Shown here one piece after another: positions 48,833 through 60,748 of a DNA stretch of 64,000 bases (its first letter is position 1; each line of letters starts with the position of its first letter). A program made the translations under genes and the position numbers. The stretch spans positions 32,780-96,779 of the IMG/VR virus record IMGVR_UViG_3300028569_000019. The stretch is one strand, 5' to 3'. The notes below the pieces were generated by a model. The model was not told the DNA's origin. It worked only from the letters and a program-made list of their open reading frames with translations, and did not search any database. This DNA comes from a virus.

Positions 48833-50659
48833 ATGAGTATGGATGTAAAAAGTCTATTGACAAACAATATGAATCCACAAGCCAAATTGATGGCTGAAAC
48901 ACGTGGACTACAATCAAAATGGGAAAAGACAGGCCTTCTAGAAGGTTGCGCTGGTGTCGAAAAGGCACATATGTCAATCCTATTGGAAAACCAAGCAAAG
49001 CAATTGCTTGACGAAGCAACCACAACTGGTACCTCCACCAGTTCTGAACAATGGGCTGGCGTAGCTCTTCCATTGGTTCGTCGTGTGTTCGCTGAAATCG
49101 CTGCGAAGGAATTCGTAAGCGTTCAACCAATGAACCTACCATCAGGTCTAATTTTCTATCTAGACTTCAAGTATGGTACAAACGCTCCTGGTCAAGATTT
49201 GCGTAACTTGAACAACGGTAGTTCTGTAACTACCCGTGCTGGTAAGCAATTGAACGATAGTTTGTTCGGTGGTACAGGCAAGAAGTTGGGTTCTACCGAT
49301 GACGCTGTACGTGGTCTATACGGACAAGGCGCTTTCGCATATTCCGTTCGTCCAGTAAGTAGCTCTGTTATTACTTTGACAAAAACTGCCGGTACAACTG
49401 CAATTGGTAATACAATTCAAACTGCTTCTTGGAACGACGTACAATTTGCTGCTGAATTGAGTGCTTCCGTAGTAGCCAAGAAATTGTTCAAGGTTATCTT
49501 GAACCACGACGACAATACTACTCCTGTAGTCGGTCAAGGATATATGTACAACGTTGATTTGAATGCAGTACGTTCATTCAACTTGATCTCAGGTTCAACC
49601 GCACCAACTTCTCTAAGAAGTAATGGTTTGGTATTGAATACCTACACCAAAGCAATCAACACTGGTAGTTTGAGCAATCCATTCTATCAATCCGTATATA
49701 TCGTATCCGCTTCTAACAGCGCATTCGGTGGCGCAGCAAGCAACGTTAAGTTGATCTACAGTCTACAACCTACCGATAACCTACGTGGTGACTTCGAAGC
49801 TGGTAAGACCCCAGGTGAAGGTTCTGGTACCTCTGGTAACGTTGCTACACAAAGCATCGATACTGATATCAGTATTCCTGAAGTAAACTTGGTACTAAAC
49901 AGCGAACCAATCGTTGCTAAGACCCGTAAGTTAAAGGCAGTCTGGACCCCAGAATTGGCCCAAGACTTGAACGCATATCACTCCATCGATGCAGAAGCAG
50001 AATTGACTGCTCTATTGAGTGAATACGTATCTATGGAAATCGATCTAGAAATCCTAGAAATGTTGAACGAAGCCGTTCAAGGTATAACTACCGAAGCTTG
50101 GTCCGCCCAAATCGGTGTTGAATTCAGCAAGAGCATCAACGCAAACAATGGTGAAGCAATCTTCACACGTAATGCAAACGCTTCACCAAATCGTACTGCT
50201 TACGTAAAGAGCACTTGGTTCCAAACCCTTGGAAACAAGATTCAAAAGGTATCTAACACAATCCAAAAATTGACCCTACGTGGTGGTGCTAACTTCTTGG
50301 TCGTAAGTCCAGACGTAGCAACCATCTTGGAATCAATTCCAGGATATGTAGTAAACACTGACGGTGATCAAGCTAAGTTCGCAATGGGCGTTGCAAGAGT
50401 TGGTAGCTTCGCAAGTCGCTTCCAAGTTTATAAGAACCCATATATGACCGATAACGTTGTATTGGTTGGTTTCCGTGGAAATAACTTCCTAGAAACCGGT
50501 GCTGTATATGCTCCATATATCCCACTAATCCAAACTCCATTGGTCTATGATCCAGTGAACTTCACTCCACGTAGAGGTGTAATGACCCGCTACGCTAAGA
50601 AGGTCGTCAGACCCGAATTTTATGGAAAAGTTATTATCGGTGATCTCGATACCGTATAA
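48833..50659 (+). CDS. gp23: Major capsid protein
   Basis: KWEKTGLLEG, LLENQ, VQPMNLPSGLIF, KTRKLKAVWTPELAQDL, YAPYIPL and GVMTRY motifs. Confidence 0.97.
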   Translation: MSMDVKSLLTNNMNPQAKLMAETRGLQSKWEKTGLLEGCAGVEKAHMSILLENQAKQLLDEATTTGTSTSSEQWAGVALPLVRRVFAEIAAKEFVSVQPMNLPSGLIFYLDFKYGTNAPGQDLRNLNNGSSVTTRAGKQLNDSLFGGTGKKLGSTDDAVRGLYGQGAFAYSVRPVSSSVITLTKTAGTTAIGNTIQTASWNDVQFAAELSASVVAKKLFKVILNHDDNTTPVVGQGYMYNVDLNAVRSFNLISGSTAPTSLRSNGLVLNTYTKAINTGSLSNPFYQSVYIVSASNSAFGGAASNVKLIYSLQPTDNLRGDFEAGKTPGEGSGTSGNVATQSIDTDISIPEVNLVLNSEPIVAKTRKLKAVWTPELAQDLNAYHSIDAEAELTALLSEYVSMEIDLEILEMLNEAVQGITTEAWSAQIGVEFSKSINANNGEAIFTRNANASPNRTAYVKSTWFQTLGNKIQKVSNTIQKLTLRGGANFLVVSPDVATILESIPGYVVNTDGDQAKFAMGVARVGSFASRFQVYKNPYMTDNVVLVGFRGNNFLETGAVYAPYIPLIQTPLVYDPVNFTPRRGVMTRYAKKVVRPEFYGKVIIGDLDTV

Positions 50660-50769: not shown

Positions 50770-51507
50770 ATGAAGAGTGGCATCTATAAAATAACAAATC
50801 TTAAGAATGGTAAGTTTTATATCGGTTCATCTAAGGATATAGAGTTTAGATGGAGTGAACATAAAAAACATTTAAATGGCAATTATCATATTAATAAAAA
50901 ATTACAAAATGCTTGGAGTTTTTATGGTAAAGAACATTTTGAATTTACAATAATCGAAATTATAAATGAATGTGATTTATTAGTTAAAGAACAGTTTTAT
51001 TTAAATATGTTTAAACCACATATGAAAGAAATTGGTTACAATATAAATCCCAGTGCATATGGCGGGGACACAATTACACATAATCCCAATAAAGAACAAA
51101 TTATTAAAAATATGACTGTTGCAAATAATGTCGGTCATATGCACGGTAAAAAACATAGTGATGAGGCTAAAGAAAGGCAACGTGAACGTGCTGTAGGGCG
51201 TTATACTTTGGAGTGGTTTGTTGACAAGTATGGCGTTGAGAGTGGTACACTTAAGTACAAAGAGAGAAATGAGAAGTTGGCCAATCGTAATATTAATTAC
51301 AGTTATGACAATGGATTAAAAGGCAAAAAGCGTGGTGCTATGAGTGATGATATGAAACGTAAGATTAGTGAACAAAAGAGAAATTTTGCGCTTAGAAAGA
51401 ATGAATTTATTGACGATTTAAAGAGTGGTAGTTTTAGCAACAACGAATTAAGTGAGAAGTATGGAGTATCATTAACCACAATTAAATTACATAAAAGAAA
51501 ATATTAA
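50770..51507 (+). CDS. GIY-YIG homing endonuclease
   Basis: SGIYKITN..FYIGSS, GYNI, NUMOD3 HGKKHSDEAK and a C-terminal HTH. Confidence 0.92.
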   Translation: MKSGIYKITNLKNGKFYIGSSKDIEFRWSEHKKHLNGNYHINKKLQNAWSFYGKEHFEFTIIEIINECDLLVKEQFYLNMFKPHMKEIGYNINPSAYGGDTITHNPNKEQIIKNMTVANNVGHMHGKKHSDEAKERQRERAVGRYTLEWFVDKYGVESGTLKYKERNEKLANRNINYSYDNGLKGKKRGAMSDDMKRKISEQKRNFALRKNEFIDDLKSGSFSNNELSEKYGVSLTTIKLHKRKY

Positions 51508-52281
51508 TTATTCGAAAAATTCGTTGGTAGATGTTACAACGATTTCTTGCACTTCTTCTTTGAACGAAGTATCTTTGGGGTAAGGTAGAATTTTATGTTT
51601 TAGAGATTTAACCAGTTTTTTATTTTCTATCTTGTTGCTAATAAACTTGACGTAACGATGTTTACCACTTTCACGTTTACGCCAAAATGTTCTACCAATA
51701 CGTTCTTTTAATTTATCTACACTGTGTGTTTTCCATCTAGCATATACACTTCTACTATGTATCCACTCATATTGATTCGGACCAATTAAACTAACACTAT
51801 AGTTAGGCATTATTGCTATATCCACATAGTTGTCTCCTTGATATAGAAATCCAGTTGCTTGATATATTGTTCCAGCGTGTCCAGCTTCACTATCTGCATA
51901 ACTAAGAATACATTTAATGTGTGGATATTCTCTGTTTAATAGTCTAAAACTTTCAGCTATACAATAACTCTCTATATTTTTACCATAACCATCTGCAATC
52001 CACAACCGTGTTAATTCCAACACATTATTGTTAGTAAGTAGACAAGATATGCTGGTACTTGAATTTCTACCCACGGCATTTCCATATACTAATACACCTA
52101 TCAGGCGTTCGTTAAATCCCCCAAAGAAAGTACTTTCGATATACTCTTTGTAATAAACTCCATAAGCTACAGTACAAAGTGACCACTTGTGAGTATAGTG
52201 GTTCTTTTCAATAAGAGTTTTTGCAACATTCTTATTGATGCTTTTGAGGTAAATTAATGAGGGGTTAAAATACTCCGACAT
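51508..52281 (-). CDS. Mom-like (GNAT-fold) DNA base modification protein
   Basis: IEKNHY, LELTRLW, ESYCIA and ILSYADSEAGHAGTIYQATGFLYQG motifs. Confidence 0.8.
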   Translation of the reverse strand: MSEYFNPSLIYLKSINKNVAKTLIEKNHYTHKWSLCTVAYGVYYKEYIESTFFGGFNERLIGVLVYGNAVGRNSSTSISCLLTNNNVLELTRLWIADGYGKNIESYCIAESFRLLNREYPHIKCILSYADSEAGHAGTIYQATGFLYQGDNYVDIAIMPNYSVSLIGPNQYEWIHSRSVYARWKTHSVDKLKERIGRTFWRKRESGKHRYVKFISNKIENKKLVKSLKHKILPYPKDTSFKEEVQEIVVTSTNEFFE

Positions 52282-52287
52282 TATTTC

Positions 52288-52315
52288 ATTATAACAATAT
52301 AACTCTACCTGTCAA
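52288..52315 (-). promoter_or_regulatory. Sigma70-type promoter TTGACA-16-TATAAT
   Basis: Perfect hexamers on the minus strand, 6 nt before the Mom-like ATG. Confidence 0.8.
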
Positions 52316-52318
52316 GAT

Positions 52319-52531
52319 TTATATTATGTAAAAAAGACCCTTGGAATTATAAACCACTGTTTTTATTTTAGTTGGGTTAATTTGATTTATACCAAGTCTA
52401 TCAATTACCTGATATGGATCTGGATGATTATTTATAGGCGCAGCCATTACTCTATCTTTTATCTTATATACATCCAAATCTGTGTTAACAATACTTGGAT
52501 GATATTGTCTTACCAAAGGCATTACTCTCAT
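52319..52531 (-). CDS. Small hypothetical protein
   Basis: ATGA overlap with the cyclase stop codon. Confidence 0.55.
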   Translation of the reverse strand: MRVMPLVRQYHPSIVNTDLDVYKIKDRVMAAPINNHPDPYQVIDRLGINQINPTKIKTVVYNSKGLFYII

Positions 52532-54306
52532 ACTGGTTTATTTATTGTTGGTTCTGCTTTTGTTACTCTGCTTGATGGAAATGCTTTGTTACCAAAGTCA
52601 CTACCGTGTAAACTATACAAGTGCATCACCACACCGTGTTTTACAACCACATCGCCTAAATCATTCACTAATACATACGCGGGTCTATCATATTTTAACA
52701 TTACAGCTGAACTAACCAATAAATGATTACTTTCACCCGCATCCATTACTCTTTGAGCATAATTGATGCCGTCGCCACTTATATTTAAATTGCCATTGAT
52801 GTCTTCCATTGGGATTACAGAACCACAATGTACACCCATTCTCATTTGTAAGTCTGGTCTATCTTTTACTGCTTTAGCTATAGCAACCGCACAATTCATT
52901 GCGTCTTCTGAGTATGTAAAGAAACCCATTACCATACCATCACCAGTAGGTAATATGATTAACTTTTCAAGAGCATTAGCTGTCTTATATTGCATTGTAC
53001 CTTTAATCAAAGTACCCAAATCTTTACAAGCTTTCTTTTGTTCATCGGTAGTCTTTTTACTATAAGCTACAATATCCATAAAGAATATATAACCTTCTTG
53101 TTCTGTATCCAATTGTAATCTACCTGATTTCACTTCCACATCAACCTTTTCAACCTTCTTGACAATAGATTTTACAGGCTTTGGAACTTCAACCTTCTTT
53201 TTTTCTTCTTTCTTTTCTACAACCGGCATATTCTTTAACTTCAAGAAGTCCTTCCAGTTAATCTTCTTTACAGGAGCATCTTTCTTTTTTGGTTCTTTTG
53301 CTGCTTGTTCTTCTTCTATCTTTTTAATAGCAGCTTCTTCTCTTTCACGTTTTTCAATAAACAAAGCTATTTGTTTTTTGACTTCATCTGTAATATAAAT
53401 GGTCACATCTTTACCGCCACCACCTGTATCGTGTTTCTTCTTTCTTTGAGCACCTTTGGATTGTAAATAACTTTGCATTTCTACATTTCCAGTCTTGAAT
53501 GCGATATCTAACGGAGCAATTTCACCCTTGAAATCCGCACCATTAACGTTTGCTCCCAAATGTACCAAAAACTCCACCATATCAACATCGTTAGCGTTAA
53601 CGGCATAATGTAATGGCATCCAACCGTTCTTTTCATCTCTACCGTTGATTCTACCATCTTTATCAAAGAATCCTTGTACACCCTCAAAATCACCAGTTTC
53701 TGCGCAGAAATGAATACTTATACCCCCGGCGGATTTAGCACCGTAATTGTTTAGTATTTTAACAATTTCGCCTCTATTTGTATTGGACAATACATCAATT
53801 GGATTGTTTTTACCCAAGAAATCTTTCTTGTTGATATCTGCACCTTTAATAATTAGATATTCAACCAAGTGTTTTTGTCCGTAATTAACGGCATAATGTA
53901 GTGCAGTCCAACCTTTACCCGCATCAACTTCGTTGATATCACATCCTTTATCTAACATTTCTTCAATAGAAACGATGTCACCATTCTTTGCAGCCAAGTG
54001 GAAACTACTACCACTGCTGTATTTAGCACCTCTTTGTTGTAGTACTTCTACAATAGGTTTAAAACCCTTTTGTTCGGCTACATCTAATGCGGTATTTTTG
54101 CTTGTCCAATCTTTTACATTTGGATCAGCTCCGTGATTTAATAATAATCGAACTATTTCTATTTGATTTTCTTCTACAGCGACAACCAGAGGCGGATTAC
54201 CTGTGTCGTCGTCTCTTTGATTAACGTCCACTTTTTCTTTTTCTATACAATTGTAAACGTTATCGTATAGACCCCTTCTAATATGGGTAAAAATATTGAT
54301 GGCCAT
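52528..54306 (-). CDS. Ankyrin-repeat / class III nucleotidyl cyclase fusion
   Basis: About 9 ANK repeats (GWTALHYAV, GWMPLHYAV); FMDIVAYS, TGDG, RMGVHCG and GINYAQRVM cyclase motifs. Confidence 0.88.
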   Translation of the reverse strand: MAINIFTHIRRGLYDNVYNCIEKEKVDVNQRDDDTGNPPLVVAVEENQIEIVRLLLNHGADPNVKDWTSKNTALDVAEQKGFKPIVEVLQQRGAKYSSGSSFHLAAKNGDIVSIEEMLDKGCDINEVDAGKGWTALHYAVNYGQKHLVEYLIIKGADINKKDFLGKNNPIDVLSNTNRGEIVKILNNYGAKSAGGISIHFCAETGDFEGVQGFFDKDGRINGRDEKNGWMPLHYAVNANDVDMVEFLVHLGANVNGADFKGEIAPLDIAFKTGNVEMQSYLQSKGAQRKKKHDTGGGGKDVTIYITDEVKKQIALFIEKREREEAAIKKIEEEQAAKEPKKKDAPVKKINWKDFLKLKNMPVVEKKEEKKKVEVPKPVKSIVKKVEKVDVEVKSGRLQLDTEQEGYIFFMDIVAYSKKTTDEQKKACKDLGTLIKGTMQYKTANALEKLIILPTGDGMVMGFFTYSEDAMNCAVAIAKAVKDRPDLQMRMGVHCGSVIPMEDINGNLNISGDGINYAQRVMDAGESNHLLVSSAVMLKYDRPAYVLVNDLGDVVVKHGVVMHLYSLHGSDFGNKAFPSSRVTKAEPTINKPV

Positions 54307-54323
54307 ATGTTTGCAGTGTTGAA

Positions 54324-54701
54324 TTAGTCTTTTTTAAAACGACTTAAATCCAAATTAGGTAGTGGTTTTTCTATATTTAGACTTGCCAATCTTTCATTTT
54401 GAACCACTAATTTGTTGCCACTAACAACCTTACCATCGACAATATCATAGATAAAGAATACAGTTTTGGTAAGTCCTACACGAATAATTCTGCCTGGTTT
54501 ACCATCGACGTATACAACGTCATCTTCTTTATAATCGGAGCCAATAAACATAAACAGCGCAGCTGCAAGTTTTTCTATGCTCGATTTAAACATTAAAATT
54601 ATCAAGCCTGCTAAGAACATCCAGACATATTTGCCTGTCATATCTTGTGCGGTTGATTCCAATACCTGTTGAGATATTACGTGTGCTGTATTTGTGTCCA
54701 T
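54324..54701 (-). CDS. Minimal MscS-like membrane protein
   Basis: TM helix, then SSIEKLAAALF..YKEDDVVYVDGKPGRIIRVGLTKT..LVVQN (MscS TM3 plus beta domain pattern). Confidence 0.65.
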   Translation of the reverse strand: MDTNTAHVISQQVLESTAQDMTGKYVWMFLAGLIILMFKSSIEKLAAALFMFIGSDYKEDDVVYVDGKPGRIIRVGLTKTVFFIYDIVDGKVVSGNKLVVQNERLASLNIEKPLPNLDLSRFKKD

Positions 54702-54776
54702 AATCGTATTTAGTTTATTAACATATAACGTTAGTTAACAATCCAAAACAATTATATAATAAATATATTTAATAAT

Positions 54777-55742
54777 TTACTTAATCCACTTTTGTTCTTT
54801 TAGTATATCATCGATCAATTCTTTTTCAGAACTGTCCATTTCCTTATCAAATCTCTTTAATACTTCGGTTAATGGATATACTCTATCAGGAGACTCTTTT
54901 TGCTTTTCTTTTAATTCTTGGATTACATCGACTATTTTGACAAGAGGAGATTTAAATTCATTAACTTTGTCTTTTGAAGCAAAGTTAGACATTTCAAATG
55001 CATGTGGAGTTAATGCTTTTACCAAACTTAATAGTCCGGATCCAATCATATTGAATATACTAAATGCTGCACCGGCGGCTGGATGTACTGTTGCTAATAT
55101 TCTAAGTATAACAAATACTATAACGAATACGATAATAGCGGTCAATGCACTGATAAAGAACTTCTTTAAACCCCAAAATACCGCATTTAATCCAAACATA
55201 CCACTCATAGCATCAAGAGTAGCCTTACTTTGATCAGCTTCTTTTGCAATTTCTTTTGCTTTATCAGTCATTTGCCACAATTCATCGTCATACTTTTCTT
55301 TCAAAGCAGACTTTTCTTTTTGTAGTTTGTTGATGATTTCGTCACGTTGTGACAATAACTGATCACCTTTCTTTCTTTCTTCAGCAACTTGACTATTCAA
55401 TAGATCAACGGTAGCTTTAATACGTTTGATTTCATCTATATGAGGTGACCCAACTATAGAAATGACACGTTCATTTAGTGCTTTAGCAGTGTCAACTTGT
55501 ACAGGCGCATTTGTTACTTGACTCAATGAGTGTTGAATACCTATGGATAAAGATGAAGTTTGTACCCGTTTACCTTTTTCTACTTTTTCCAATTCTACCA
55601 TTGTATTATCTACTTTGGCTTCCTGTTTAGCAACCGCATCTTGTGACGTTGTAACTTGCTTTGCTGGTTTAACTTCGGAGGAAATGCAACCAGTTAGTAT
55701 TAGAATCACGATTGTATAATACAGTTGTTTTTTATAGTTCAT
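54777..55742 (-). CDS. Lipoprotein with coiled coil and C-proximal TM segment(s)
   Basis: Lipobox ILTG-C, long heptad region and hydrophobic FFISALTAIIVFVIVFVILRIL. Confidence 0.7.
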   Translation of the reverse strand: MNYKKQLYYTIVILILTGCISSEVKPAKQVTTSQDAVAKQEAKVDNTMVELEKVEKGKRVQTSSLSIGIQHSLSQVTNAPVQVDTAKALNERVISIVGSPHIDEIKRIKATVDLLNSQVAEERKKGDQLLSQRDEIINKLQKEKSALKEKYDDELWQMTDKAKEIAKEADQSKATLDAMSGMFGLNAVFWGLKKFFISALTAIIVFVIVFVILRILATVHPAAGAAFSIFNMIGSGLLSLVKALTPHAFEMSNFASKDKVNEFKSPLVKIVDVIQELKEKQKESPDRVYPLTEVLKRFDKEMDSSEKELIDDILKEQKWIK

Positions 55743-55787
55743 ATAATATAAATATTACTTTTTATAATTAAACCAATATTTATCAAT

Positions 55788-56390: not shown

Positions 56391-56656
56391 TGAGTCTACC
56401 GTTTATAGAAAACTCACTGGGCAACAATCAGTATATAAGAGAATTTAGTTCTGATGTAGATACGCACGAACTGGAATGGCATATAGATCGTGAAGACAGA
56501 ACAGTTGAAGTTATAGAAAATAACAATTGGCACTTTCAATTAGATAATAATTTACCACAATTGCTTAAAGAAACAATATTTATACCAAAAGAAACATACC
56601 ACCGTGTAATAAAAGGCACGGGCAATCTAAAAGTAAGAATAACAAAACACATATGA
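56390..56656 (+). CDS. Small cupin-like protein
   Basis: EWHIDREDR...IFIPKETYHRVIKG. Confidence 0.6.
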   Translation: MSLPFIENSLGNNQYIREFSSDVDTHELEWHIDREDRTVEVIENNNWHFQLDNNLPQLLKETIFIPKETYHRVIKGTGNLKVRITKHI

Positions 56657-57792
56657 AATTTATTGATTTATTAACCGAAGTTAAAATGTATGAAGCAATG
56701 GGTTTACCACCCGATAGTATAATGACATTGGATCAGTTTGTGAATTCATCAGGTCTAGAAGAAGCTGATATGACCCGTACAATGACTCCGGACGAAATGC
56801 AAGACTACCTCGCAAAAACCGCCGATGGTAAAAAGACAAAATTAGATAAGTACATGATGCCCTATGTACACAGAGGCAATATTGAAATTAAAGATGAAAA
56901 TGATCGTAAGTTTGATTTAGATAAATTGAAAGCAGCGATTATTACTCGTCCTACAAAGTTATTAAAACAAAATGAAAAGATTACCCATAGTGGAGGCGAA
57001 ACCGCACAATATTTCAATATAGGTTTGCCAGCTTTAAAAGGATTAGCAGTAAATGAAAAGACTGGCGATTTTATTGTAGTAGATACGTGTCCTGGCGCAG
57101 GTGCTTGTAAAGTATATTGTTATGCTAAAAAAGGCGGCTATGTACAATGGAAAGAAAGTTCAATGTCTCAAACCAAAGTATTGAACTTTTTGCTAAACGA
57201 TCCACAAGGATTTAAAGCAAAATTAGAATCCGAAATACAAACTGAAGTGGATAAGTTTGCTAAAAAAGGAGCTAAAGTAGTAATTAGATGGCACGATGCT
57301 GGTGATTTTTTCAGTCCAGATTATGTTGATTTAGCTTATAGTGTTGCCAGAAAGTTCCCACAAGTTGATTTTTATGCTTATACAAAAATGGCAGGTGTAG
57401 CAACTGGAAACAAGCCTAATAATTTTAAGATGAATTTTAGTATGGGTGCTACTCAAGATCAAGAAAAACAAATACAACCTAAGAGTACTAAACATTCTAC
57501 AGTAGTTCCAAAACCAATGTTTACCGATTTGATTTTGAAAGATAACAATGGCAAATTGATAAAAGATAAAGACGGTAAGATTCAATTTAAGTCGCCTGAG
57601 GCTATAGATACATTAAAAGATAAATTGTCTGCAAAATATGGCGTTCCTAAAGATAGCATCATTACATACGATGAGATGAAAGTAATTCCAGCTGGAAAAG
57701 AACCAAAGTGGAATGTTATAGTTAAACCAGGCGACGGCGATGAAAGTGCAAACAGAGCGGATGTAGTAGGTACTTGGTTATTAATCCACTAA
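56653..57792 (+). CDS. Gp88-like protein (Cys-triad, radical-SAM-like)
   Basis: TCPGAGACKVYCYA, IRWHDAGDF and FYAYTK motifs. Confidence 0.75.
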   Translation: MKFIDLLTEVKMYEAMGLPPDSIMTLDQFVNSSGLEEADMTRTMTPDEMQDYLAKTADGKKTKLDKYMMPYVHRGNIEIKDENDRKFDLDKLKAAIITRPTKLLKQNEKITHSGGETAQYFNIGLPALKGLAVNEKTGDFIVVDTCPGAGACKVYCYAKKGGYVQWKESSMSQTKVLNFLLNDPQGFKAKLESEIQTEVDKFAKKGAKVVIRWHDAGDFFSPDYVDLAYSVARKFPQVDFYAYTKMAGVATGNKPNNFKMNFSMGATQDQEKQIQPKSTKHSTVVPKPMFTDLILKDNNGKLIKDKDGKIQFKSPEAIDTLKDKLSAKYGVPKDSIITYDEMKVIPAGKEPKWNVIVKPGDGDESANRADVVGTWLLIH

Positions 57793-57831: not shown

Positions 57832-58599
57832 ATGAGTGCTAATGTCAAGAAATATTTGTATCTATTGGTTAAAACCCATTCTGTAACTGGAATGAGATAT
57901 CTTTGTAAGAGAGTTACTACTAGTGATTCCAAAGCTATTTCATACTTAGGATCCGGAACAAGATGGAATAACCATTTAAAAGTCCACGGAAAACATATAA
58001 ATACAGAAATACTTGTTAAATATGATTTAGATAGAATTGAAGAATTTAGTAAGTTGTGTATAGATTATAGTAACAAATTTGATATAGTTAAAAGTGGCGA
58101 TTGGTCAAATTTAATCATTGAAACGGGTAAACCCGGAACTAAAATAGGTATTTATTGTGGTGATAAAGGAACTTTTTTTGGAAAGAAACACACCGAAGAA
58201 ACAAAAGAAAAAATAAGCATTGCGAATCGTGGAGATAATAATGTAATGCGTAGAAATAAGATTGCTTTAGAAAAGATGATTTTGACAAAAAATAAACCGG
58301 AAAATAAAGAAAAACAAAGATTGATTGCAATTGAAGTAAATAGTAGACCCGAAGTAAAAGAAAAGATTAGACAGTCAAAATTAGGATTAAATAATCCATC
58401 TGCAGATAAAAATATTTATACATTAAAAAATAAATTTACTGGAGATACAATCAATGGAACAAGATTTGATCTAATTGAACAAATGAAAAAATTAAATAGT
58501 AACAATCCATCTATTAATATATTAACAAATGGAGACATTGGTTATTTCTTAAAAAAAGACAGAGTTGTAAAAAACGTGAAAGGGTGGACTAAGATATGA
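57832..58599 (+). CDS. Seg-like (degenerate GIY-YIG) homing endonuclease
   Basis: YLYLLVKTHSVTGMRYLCK..YLGSG; NUMOD3 FFGKKHTEETKEKIS. Confidence 0.8.
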   Translation: MSANVKKYLYLLVKTHSVTGMRYLCKRVTTSDSKAISYLGSGTRWNNHLKVHGKHINTEILVKYDLDRIEEFSKLCIDYSNKFDIVKSGDWSNLIIETGKPGTKIGIYCGDKGTFFGKKHTEETKEKISIANRGDNNVMRRNKIALEKMILTKNKPENKEKQRLIAIEVNSRPEVKEKIRQSKLGLNNPSADKNIYTLKNKFTGDTINGTRFDLIEQMKKLNSNNPSINILTNGDIGYFLKKDRVVKNVKGWTKI

Positions 58600-59888
58600 G
58601 TGCTAATCTTGACTCCGATAGGGTAAGATGGCCTGGAAGTGGTAGCAGTGTTACCCAAGACACTGTGCCATTTGGTTATTACTTAAGCGAAAGTTGCAAC
58701 ACAGTATCTGGCGAAACTACATTTGAAAACGATTGTAGTAGCAGCGCTATGTGGGCAGCGAAACGTTTGGGGTATCCAATCATCGATATAGAAATGATCG
58801 ATGTTAATTTTTACGCTTGTTTTGAAGAATCTGTATTGGAGTATAACCGCGTTGTTAATGAATTTAATATCGTTAATAATATGGTTAATTTACAAGGTTT
58901 ACCTCAAGCCACATACAACAATTTAACTGGATTGGGTGTAAAAAGTACAGGTTTGCCTTTTATAATCCAATTAAGCAAACAATACGGAGCAGAAGCACTT
59001 GTTGGTGGTGAAGTTGAAGTTAAACGCAATTATGTAACTATTAGTGGAAGTATCAATCCATCTGCTACCAATCAGGTGTATGACTTAAATAAACTAATTG
59101 GACAAGACATTGAACATTTAACTGGTTCCAGAATTGAAGTGAAAAGAGTATTTCACCATCGACCACCAGCTATTGCACGTATTTATGATCCATTTAGTAT
59201 GACAGGTATGAGTTACAGCAACGTACTCAGTGAAATGGGATTCAGCGCATATAGTCCCGCTACACAATTCTTGATGACTCCTATATTTGAAGATTTGGAA
59301 CGTGTACAAGCTATCGAATTCAATGATATGGTTCGTAAAAGCGCTTACAGTTTTGAAATTCTAGGCAACAACAAGTTGAGAATATTTCCAATCCCAACCG
59401 ATAATTTTAGAGTGTATATAGATTACATCGTTGAACGTGAACGTGATATTACCAACTTTTACAGCGGATCTCGTTATCAATATATAAGCGACCCAAGCGA
59501 CGTTCCATATGAATATTGTACTTACTGTAAGGTAAATCAGCCTGGTAAACAATGGATCAAAAAGTATTTTTTGGCATTGTGCAAAGAAACATTGGGTCGT
59601 ATTCTTCAAAAATATAGTACCGTACCAATTCCTGGCGGCGAAGTAACTCTTGATGGTGCTGAACTTCGTTCTGAAGCTAAAGAAGAAAAAGATTCATTGC
59701 TTGAAAAACTAAGAGATATGTTGGAAAAGACGCTTCGTGTTAATCAATTGGAAAATAAAGGAAAAGAAAGTGAAGAAATGAATAAGATGTTGTCCCGTGT
59801 ACCTTTACATATTTACATTGGGGTTTGGGCATTTTTACTAATATATATTAATATATGGACAAACATCAATGTGATATCTGTGGTTTAA
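58596..59888 (+). CDS. Neck / head-tail adaptor protein (gp13-like)
   Basis: RLGYPIIDIE, WIKKYFLALCKETLG..KY..PGGEVTLDG motifs. Confidence 0.8.
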   Translation: MSANLDSDRVRWPGSGSSVTQDTVPFGYYLSESCNTVSGETTFENDCSSSAMWAAKRLGYPIIDIEMIDVNFYACFEESVLEYNRVVNEFNIVNNMVNLQGLPQATYNNLTGLGVKSTGLPFIIQLSKQYGAEALVGGEVEVKRNYVTISGSINPSATNQVYDLNKLIGQDIEHLTGSRIEVKRVFHHRPPAIARIYDPFSMTGMSYSNVLSEMGFSAYSPATQFLMTPIFEDLERVQAIEFNDMVRKSAYSFEILGNNKLRIFPIPTDNFRVYIDYIVERERDITNFYSGSRYQYISDPSDVPYEYCTYCKVNQPGKQWIKKYFLALCKETLGRILQKYSTVPIPGGEVTLDGAELRSEAKEEKDSLLEKLRDMLEKTLRVNQLENKGKESEEMNKMLSRVPLHIYIGVWAFLLIYINIWTNINVISVV

Positions 59889-60748
59889 AATATAAAAGCA
59901 CCAGATCTTTATCAATTCATATAAAATCTTCACATAAAATATCGACTGAAGAATATTATATAAAACATGTTAATATAAATAAAAGTGAGTGTATTTCTTG
60001 TAAATCAAAAACTAGGTTCGTGTCTTTAGTCGACGGATATTCAAAATACTGCAGTATTAAATGTTCGAAAATACATTATTATAGCGATGTGAATAATAGA
60101 ATTTTTGTATCGGAAAAAACAAAAATTGCTATGAAAAATCCCATTGTTAAAGAAAAAATGTCTAAATTTTTTTCGAAAGAAAAGTCAAAGGAAACTTTAG
60201 AAAAAATGAGTATATCTAGTAAAAAAAGATTTGAGGATGAAAATTTTAAAAAAAAGATATATACCAAAGAGAGAAATGAGAAAATCTCGATAGCAAAAAA
60301 GAAATATTGGGATACACATCCAGAAGAGAAAAAGCGTGTTGGTCAGATATGGAAAATATTGAAAGAAGAAGACGAATCCAAATGGAGAGGAAATTTATTA
60401 AGAGCGTCTAGACTGGGGTTTAAAAAAATATTTTCTCCTACAGGAAACACATCGTTGGAGGAAAAATTGTATAAACAGTTGGAGTTAGAAAATATAAAAT
60501 ATATACCACAATATGTTATAGATTATAAAGTGTTCGATGCGTATTTGCCGGATTATAATCTAGTAATTGAGATTGATGGTATATTTTGGCATCCAAAATC
60601 GCTGGGTGAATGTAAATATGAATTTCAAAAAACATCATATTTTAATGATTTGGAAAAAGAAAATTTATTAAAACAAAAAAACATAAAATTGATACGAATT
60701 CGAGAAAATGAATTTCCAGATTCAATCATTAACACTATAAATAAATAA
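59855..60748 (+). CDS. Zn-finger / DUF559 (Vsr-like) homing endonuclease
   Basis: CDIC..HIKSSH, CISC, YCSIKC and FDAYLPDYNLVIEIDGIFWH motifs. Confidence 0.82.
   Translation: MDKHQCDICGLKYKSTRSLSIHIKSSHKISTEEYYIKHVNINKSECISCKSKTRFVSLVDGYSKYCSIKCSKIHYYSDVNNRIFVSEKTKIAMKNPIVKEKMSKFFSKEKSKETLEKMSISSKKRFEDENFKKKIYTKERNEKISIAKKKYWDTHPEEKKRVGQIWKILKEEDESKWRGNLLRASRLGFKKIFSPTGNTSLEEKLYKQLELENIKYIPQYVIDYKVFDAYLPDYNLVIEIDGIFWHPKSLGECKYEFQKTSYFNDLEKENLLKQKNIKLIRIRENEFPDSIINTINK

Follow-up and report, generated by a model that had tools for sequence, protein, structure and literature searches.

Organization of the Four-Gene Block

The window analyzed here, a stretch of 64,000 nucleotides (nt) that makes up the last 64 kb of the 96.8-kb virus record IMGVR_UViG_3300028569_000019 in IMG/VR, comes from an uncultured lake-water phage, a giant myovirus distantly related to T4, and carries four consecutive minus-strand genes, referred to as lipo321, m125, ankcyc, and s70, within an otherwise plus-strand structural (head-gene) region. 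They encode, respectively, a lipoprotein, a miniature protein of the MscS family (mini-MscS), a class III nucleotide cyclase fused to ankyrin repeats, and a small soluble protein. This block probably represents a composite accessory island, in which a stable envelope pair, formed by lipo321 and m125, is combined with a swappable slot for cyclic-nucleotide cargo, usually a cyclase. A preliminary description of the same DNA had proposed that the four genes constitute a late operon acting as a single envelope-sensing module; the four co-oriented genes are all present where it had placed them, and its labels of lipoprotein, mini-MscS, ankyrin-cyclase, and small open reading frame (ORF) are correct (Table 1).

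The genes are closely packed, with 75 nt between lipo321 and m125 and 17 nt, devoid of any copy of the promoter-like motif described below, between m125 and ankcyc, while the ankcyc stop and the s70 start share a 4-nt ATGA overlap. The octamer ATATTTAT occurs ahead of lipo321 and again ahead of m125.

Table 1. Features of the four-gene block and of its surroundings in the 64-kb window
Feature	Positions	Strand	Remarks
lipo321	54777-55742	minus	321 amino acids (aa)
m125	54324-54701	minus	125 aa
ankcyc	52528-54306	minus	592 aa
Ankyrin-repeat region of ankcyc	53437-54249	minus	residues ~20-290, ~8 repeats; Ank_2 E = 1.2e-37, Ank E = 1.4e-37
Lys/Glu-rich linker of ankcyc	53125-53436	minus	residues ~291-394; poorly conserved in the alignment
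Class III cyclase domain of ankcyc	52531-53124	minus	residues 395-592
s70	52319-52531	minus	70 aa
ATATTTAT promoter-like motif, copy 1	55748-55755	minus	5 nt before the lipo321 ATG
ATATTTAT motif, copy 2	54759-54766	minus	57 nt before the m125 ATG
Sigma-70 promoter of the Mom-like gene	52288-52315	minus	TTGACA, 16 nt, TG-TATAAT; 3' limit of the block
Mom-like gene	51508-52281	minus	fifth co-oriented gene, after s70; PF25680, E = 3e-44
gp23-type major capsid protein	48833-50659		
GP88-like protein	56653-57792		
GIY-YIG and HNH homing-endonuclease genes	50770-51507, 57832-58599, 59855-60748		both sides of the block

Conservation and Modularity of the Block in Related Phages

Related loci were fetched from IMG/VR only, 76 of them via the cyclase, 38 via a distant cyclase, and 80 via m125; these approximately 190 loci correspond to far fewer distinct contigs, many of which were fetched twice. 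Most of the freshwater loci have the four genes arranged as lipo321, m125, ankcyc, s70, and the block proved to be syntenic in almost all of the freshwater relatives fetched, including phages with unrelated flanks, such as the contigs L053 and L059, which keep the four-gene order and share nothing with this record on either side. A cyclase or a cyclase cassette directly follows m125 in 35 of the 37 distinct freshwater loci that extend 1.2 kb or more past this gene: ankcyc is the next gene in 31 of them, and a cassette of barrel, sensor-cyclase, and HD-hydrolase genes (PF00211, E = 2.8e-27) occupies that place in the other four. The remaining two (L059 and L076) carry a holin and a protein with two transmembrane (TM) helices between m125 and ankcyc. 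Some loci carry both cyclases.

The two parts of the block can also be found separately. In L123, L124, L150, and L180, lipo321 and m125 are not accompanied by ankcyc; in L028, L033, and L065, ankcyc is present without the envelope pair, either alone or with s70 only; in L029 and L035, m125 and ankcyc are present without lipo321; and, on one contig of 296 kb, ankcyc lies 14.5 kb from the pair. Only one marine locus has the cyclase immediately downstream of m125, and in 21 others the cyclase is 1-5 kb away, on either strand. Homologues amount to approximately 1250 clusters for lipo321 (profile search), 830 for m125, and 125 for ankcyc, numbers obtained by searches of differing sensitivity. The proposal of a single module is borne out insofar as the genes co-occur in relatives and a cyclase so regularly succeeds m125; nevertheless, the parts come apart, and the block is not one indivisible unit.

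The content of the slot and of its borders is itself diverse. The three-gene cassette, found in the slot or adjoining it (L150:8394-11267, L180:8384-11246, L011:7824-10697, and L029:7773-10636), encodes an outer-membrane-barrel-like protein of 215 aa, a protein of 482 aa in which a two-TM periplasmic sensor is joined to a canonical class III cyclase, and an HD-type hydrolase of 259 aa, which in these relatives gives a partial match to an NCBIfam HD metalloprotein and a match to a PHROG phosphohydrolase, and has no sequence match in the PDB. The insertion at L059:5060-6008, also present in L076 and found on these two contigs only, comprises a two-TM protein of 206 aa with a periplasmic helical domain, which resembles an orphan sensor, and a holin of 108 aa (phrog_2359, E = 1.4e-11). 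At the other end, several lineages have, in place of s70, either a PAS membrane protein with a barrel protein or the cyclase cassette. At L066:7769-9123, which belongs to a group with 75% identity, the replacement consists of a PAS-domain protein of 205 aa, anchored to the membrane, and a secreted protein of 234 aa that resembles a barrel, and a homologue of the latter is also encoded elsewhere in the record from which the window derives.

The Mini-MscS Protein m125

The m125 protein begins with a short helix at its N-terminus and continues with one thin TM helix (residues ~24-38), a TM3b-like helix, and an MscS beta-domain; the TM helix is the equivalent of MscS TM3a. This is its only hydrophobic helix, so that TM1 and TM2, the tension-sensing paddle, are absent, as is the alpha/beta domain at the C-terminal end that makes up the cytoplasmic cage, the protein ending approximately 15 residues past the beta-domain. 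An invariant core is common to 18 homologues drawn from both the freshwater and the marine clade, and 15 of these 18 family members match the MscS beta-domain family PF00924 (best E = 6.5e-7). When the family profile was compared with the PDB, all 14 matches were MscS proteins (best E = 0.003), with an alignment that spans TM3b and the beta-domain. Moreover, the AlphaFold model consists of one long helix and, after it, a small beta domain, with a predicted local distance difference test (pLDDT) of 64 that rises to 74-80 for residues 61-100 of the beta part. The top Foldseek matches of this model are the MscS of Escherichia coli and Helicobacter pylori, Arabidopsis MSL10, and Flycatcher1, and ranks 1-24 of the listed matches are all MscS-family chains, with the mini-MscS of Trypanosoma cruzi ranking lower. 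Identity to solved MscS proteins is approximately 20%, and profile, Pfam, and fold searches agree that m125 is homologous to the TM3 pore helix and the beta-domain of MscS.

Among known systems, the closest parallel is TcMscS from T. cruzi, a protein of 165 aa (PDB 9bgq) that contains TM2, TM3, and the beta-domain and, without a cytoplasmic cage, works as a heptameric, tension-gated channel (PMC12334622). m125 also lacks the cage, and TcMscS is among its fold matches. However, m125 is smaller, has one TM helix and no TM2, is encoded by a phage, and has a TM helix that is not rich in Gly and Ala. Literature searches returned no account of an MscS-type protein, minimal or otherwise, encoded by a phage, and neither m125 nor its marine homologue has a protein match in 50,697 deposited phage genomes. 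Two natural departures from the simple architecture were observed. In the marine contig L112 (3779-4601), and also in L079, L089, and L098, two diverged mini-MscS paralogues of 106 and 157 aa are encoded back to back, adjoining phoH. In the variant P0121 (159 aa), the N-terminal segment and the TM helix are duplicated internally, which results in a two-TM mini-MscS.

m125 retains exactly the parts that form the inter-subunit core of MscS, namely TM3 and the beta-domain, and its family is widespread, conserved, and confined to phages. It could, therefore, be imagined as a poison or modifier subunit that joins the MscS-family heptamers of the host through these interfaces and locks them shut or open, giving the phage control of turgor and ion leak. 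Nevertheless, with an identity of only about one residue in five to solved MscS proteins, such mixed assembly seems distinctly improbable.

The Ankyrin-Cyclase ankcyc and the Small Protein s70

The residues required for catalysis are retained in ankcyc, as D411 and D456, which bind the metal, R489, N515, and R519 are invariant in the freshwater and marine clades and in cellular relatives, with identities of 72-98%, 32-44%, and 34-41% (the last for the cyclase domain), respectively. In canonical class III cyclases, the base is specified by a Lys/Asp pair for ATP and by a Glu/Cys pair for GTP. The corresponding positions in ankcyc, L452 and N508, are also invariant, and the base of the product is not readable from the sequence, because Leu and Asn conform to neither pair. 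With the family profile, the best PDB matches are 3mr7 from Ruegeria pomeroyi (E = 8.8e-9), Rv1900c/LipJ from Mycobacterium tuberculosis (1ybt, E = 4e-8), and Ma1120 from Mycobacterium avium (4wp9, E = 4e-6). These solved soluble cyclases belong to the same fold family by profile, and their metal-binding Asp pair, as well as the Arg and the Asn/Arg that act in the transition state, are kept in ankcyc. Judging by these residues, ankcyc most likely makes a cyclic nucleotide.

An exhaustive profile search placed the cyclase domain in a large, uncharacterized subfamily of cellular proteins (913 clusters at E < 1e-30, with matches of approximately 200 bits), whose members fuse it to tetratricopeptide repeats (TPR) and often to a Ser/Thr kinase; none of the solved PDB chains matched proved to belong to this close subfamily. 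ankcyc is ~37-41% identical to these proteins and agrees with them in having Leu/Ile and Asn at the two base-specifying positions. Both pair the cyclase domain with a repeat scaffold, which is made of ankyrin repeats in the phage-borne protein and of TPR in the cellular ones. Since the ankyrin repeats occupy the place of the TPR in the cellular relatives, regulation or placement of the enzyme by a protein partner is suggested. The only matches to the ankyrin part among deposited phage genomes are ankyrin genes of a generic kind, in Wolbachia and Leptospira phages, and no account of an ankyrin-cyclase fusion was retrieved by literature searches.

The small gene s70, present in most but not all relatives, encodes a soluble protein. 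Variation among the orthologues is greatest at third codon positions (28, 29, and 61 variable sites at the first, second, and third positions, respectively), which indicates that it is a real coding gene. It belongs to no known family, has no ESM Atlas lead above chance, and has no detectable relatives outside the cassette.

A class III-type cyclase gene beside genes for small membrane proteins recalls Pycsar, the bacterial defence in which a pyrimidine cyclase is paired with a TM or TIR effector, and the preliminary description had likened the block to cyclase and membrane-effector systems of this kind. ankcyc might then act in defence or counter-defence, its product (cyclic CMP, cyclic UMP, or a decoy nucleotide) triggering or jamming an immune effector of the host or of a rival phage. 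The unusual base-specifying residues and weak PADLOC matches to PycC would be compatible with this role; the ankcyc of the window matches with E = 0.016, and the best value, E = 1.2e-4, was obtained within the 4 of 12 family members that match. However, ankcyc is far closer to the TPR- and kinase-linked cellular subfamily, and to 3mr7, Rv1900c, and Ma1120, than to PycC, the genes are located in a phage and not in a bacterial defence island, and an effector equipped with a nucleotide-binding domain is absent. In scans with Pfam and other family collections, no cyclic-nucleotide-binding domain was detected in lipo321, m125, s70, or ankcyc. The likeness does not extend to the membrane proteins of the block, and a Pycsar-like function appears very improbable.

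The Lipoprotein lipo321 and a Possible Role in Lysis

lipo321 is a phage-only lipoprotein that carries the lipobox ILTGC, and its Cys19 is invariant in 11 homologues with identities down to 23%. The signal is followed by a helical periplasmic region of approximately 170 aa, a strong TM helix (residues 195-213), a weaker hydrophobic helix (residues 222-245) located after a conserved Pro-Ala turn, and a tail of 75 aa. As read from this arrangement, the last 75 residues may be cytoplasmic, if the protein crosses the membrane once, or periplasmic, if the two helices form a hairpin. The AlphaFold model is all-helical and of low confidence (pLDDT 47, predicted template modelling score 0.19). No Pfam, PHROG, PADLOC, or NCBIfam family matches lipo321 above noise, and its ESM Atlas neighbours are viral clusters only, with no assigned families.

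The combination of an N-terminal lipoprotein signal with a membrane helix towards the C-terminus recalls T1 gp11, a unimolecular spanin, and lipo321 could bridge both membranes. On this basis, the envelope pair might belong to the lysis machinery, with lipo321 as a unimolecular spanin, m125 as a pore that resembles or modulates a holin, and the cyclase as an unrelated passenger in a variable spot associated with lysis. The N-terminal lipobox, the helical periplasmic rod, and the inner-membrane helix of lipo321 speak for this role, the promoter-like motif is common to structural genes, a PHROG holin has entered between m125 and the cyclase in L059 and L076, and the clusters of lipo321 and m125 homologues far outnumber those of the cyclase. 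However, lipo321 and T1 gp11 have no sequence family in common, lipo321 has the helical rod, and, unlike in T1 gp11, approximately 100 residues follow its TM helix. Moreover, the pair shows no homology to spanin, holin, or endolysin families, no endolysin or holin adjoins the block or lipo321 in the window, and the holin insertion is restricted to the two contigs mentioned. A function in lysis is, therefore, unlikely on balance.

Promoter-Like Motif and Transcription

The octamer ATATTTAT is present in 26 copies in the window, where approximately 16 would be expected, and at least 13 of the 26 are in the correct orientation with a start codon no more than 60 nt downstream; the position of the copies is more telling than their number. 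The motif is found 3-34 nt ahead of many starts in the window and precedes the start of a large structural ORF at 27807, and the recurrent box reads ATATTTAT(A). The copy before lipo321 is conserved in close relatives. Boxes specific to the phage are located before lipo321 and m125 in both phage groups, the box being GTGTAA in the phages of the L053 and L059 type with unrelated flanks. Moreover, terminator hairpins stand immediately ahead of lipo321 in L059 and L066. Thus, m125, ankcyc, and s70 are most likely expressed as a single transcript from the motif that precedes m125, and lipo321 has a copy of its own. Both motif copies to which the preliminary description had drawn attention are real, although the second is separated from the m125 ATG by 57 nt and does not stand directly before it.

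Late promoters of T4 consist of a TATAAATA box located approximately 6 nt before the transcript start. Identification of ATATTTAT with this box was rejected, since the sequences are different, but the ATATTTAT box may fill the role of the T4 late promoter despite this difference. The term "late" applied to the operon is a reasonable deduction from a motif that is common to structural genes; nevertheless, it does not have the standing of a finding, as the motif is not the T4 late box. The octamer often ends just 3-6 nt before an ATG (plus strand, 36362, 46081, 55776, 57819, 60756, and 62791; minus strand, 47600 and 55755), and, if it were a -10-like element, many messenger RNAs (mRNAs) of this phage would be leaderless. 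Alternatively, it might be a signal for translation or processing.

Genomic Surroundings of the Block

The gene for the gp23-type major capsid protein, whose closest counterparts among isolates, those of Microcystis phage Mel-JY01 and of Flavobacterium phage immuto, are only approximately 50% identical to it, lies near the block together with genes for a prohead protease and a neck protein. The block DNA itself is unmatched in deposited phage genomes. The homing-endonuclease genes around the block fit a recombination hot spot in the head-gene region.

On its 3' side, the block is bounded by the Mom-like gene, which was considered as a fifth member of the operon and rejected, because it has a perfect sigma-70 promoter of its own. 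This promoter has 12 of 12 consensus matches in addition to the TG of an extended -10 element and occupies the 37-nt gap between s70 and Mom. The Mom-like gene is thus a unit of its own, probably an early one, and its promoter ends 6 nt before the start codon, so that its mRNA would be leaderless or nearly so.

Curli-type secretion was also rejected as an explanation for the block, since no Csg domains (CsgG, CsgF, or CsgA) were found among its proteins. Uncultivated pelagiphage genomes carry adenylate cyclases beside genes for curli (type VIII secretion), FecR, and histidine kinases (PMC9599517). Both arrangements combine a phage-borne cyclase with genes for envelope proteins in transferable multigene sets of uncultured aquatic phages. 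However, the partners in the block are a lipoprotein and a mini-MscS and not homologues of CsgG, CsgF, or CsgA, and the cyclase is fused to ankyrin repeats.

A Probable Two-Unit Island and Its Alternatives

The reading that we consider probable is that of an island of two units. The first, the widely conserved envelope pair, would place lipo321 with its N-terminus anchored to lipid, its long helical rod across the periplasm, and its TM helix fixed in the inner membrane, where m125, by analogy with TcMscS, probably assembles into a small ring or pore of several subunits, the beta-domain lying in the cytoplasm. The second, swappable unit would consist of the cyclase, accompanied by s70, whose translation appears to be coupled to that of ankcyc. 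ankcyc would be soluble and probably homodimeric, and its ankyrin repeats probably dock it on a protein partner or place it under the control of that partner. In this way, late in infection, the phage would likely remodel the envelope of the host and set the level of cyclic nucleotide. These two activities would be genetically linked, because some cyclase nearly always follows the mini-MscS gene.

Several observations weigh against this interpretation. Taken alone, the m125 of the window scores 15.2 bits with PF00924, below the cut-off of 20.2, and its TM helix, with only approximately 15 hydrophobic residues, lacks the Gly/Ala richness of MscS TM3a. Pore formation by m125 is uncertain because this helix is short and of that composition. 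Similarly, ankcyc passes the PF00211 threshold barely, with 22.9 bits against a cut-off of 21.9, and its base-specifying residues, as described above, are non-canonical. With regard to synteny, the freshwater loci are all close relatives (m125 at least 83% identical), and the rule that a cyclase follows m125 may go back to a small number of ancestral events. Among the 38 marine loci, there are 16 in which m125 is missing within 6 kb of the cyclase, and m125 stays beside phoH while the position of the cyclase varies. Finally, the record is approximately 29% complete according to CheckV, and co-occurrence across the genome is not countable from such a record.

The envelope-sensing module of the preliminary description would require, beyond the genetic linkage of the two units, that they be wired into one circuit, in which the lipoprotein and the mini-MscS sense superinfection, a change of turgor, or damage to the wall and signal to the ankyrin-cyclase, whose cyclic nucleotide in turn governs the timing of lysis or exclusion. 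The conserved order and probable co-transcription of the genes agree with such a circuit, as does the presence of a cyclase gene of either architecture after m125 in nearly all of the distinct freshwater loci. Moreover, the alternative cargo is itself an envelope sensor, with two TM helices around a periplasmic domain joined to a cyclase and with an outer-membrane barrel and an HD hydrolase adjoining, and both the MscS beta-domain and the ankyrin repeats would be cytoplasmic. On the other hand, the units separate in several genomes, being far apart on the 296-kb contig, the linkage is loose in the marine clade, the envelope genes have far more homologue clusters than the cyclase, and neither a cyclic-nucleotide-binding domain nor any other receptor was found in the block. 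Since no receptor for a cyclic nucleotide is detectable in the block, we infer rather than observe any sensing of the envelope, and a wired circuit, whether the coupling were physical or regulatory, has a low probability. Still less likely is the specific form in which a mini-MscS ring held by the envelope-spanning lipoprotein reports turgor or envelope damage to the docked ankyrin-cyclase, or to the sensor cyclase that replaces it, and the resulting nucleotide sets the time of lysis; such a system, carried by T4-like giant phages of both fresh and marine waters, would be a nucleotide-based counterpart of the lysis inhibition of T4. The interpretation given in the preliminary description is thus partly supported, and the two-unit island is the best supported of the readings.

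Implications for the Biology of Giant Aquatic Phages

Phage-borne cyclases have so far been mentioned only in passing, for pelagiphage genomes, and the genes of the block are present in many abundant uncultured phages of lakes and oceans. If the cyclase is active, such phages would, at a late stage of infection, set the second-messenger state of the host. Were m125 to form a pore or to modify the MscS of the host, it would count as a membrane effector of a kind new among phages and as the smallest known protein of the MscS type. That a mini-MscS is so regularly paired with a cyclase of either architecture provides a concrete and testable lead on how giant phages may couple the state of the envelope to signalling.

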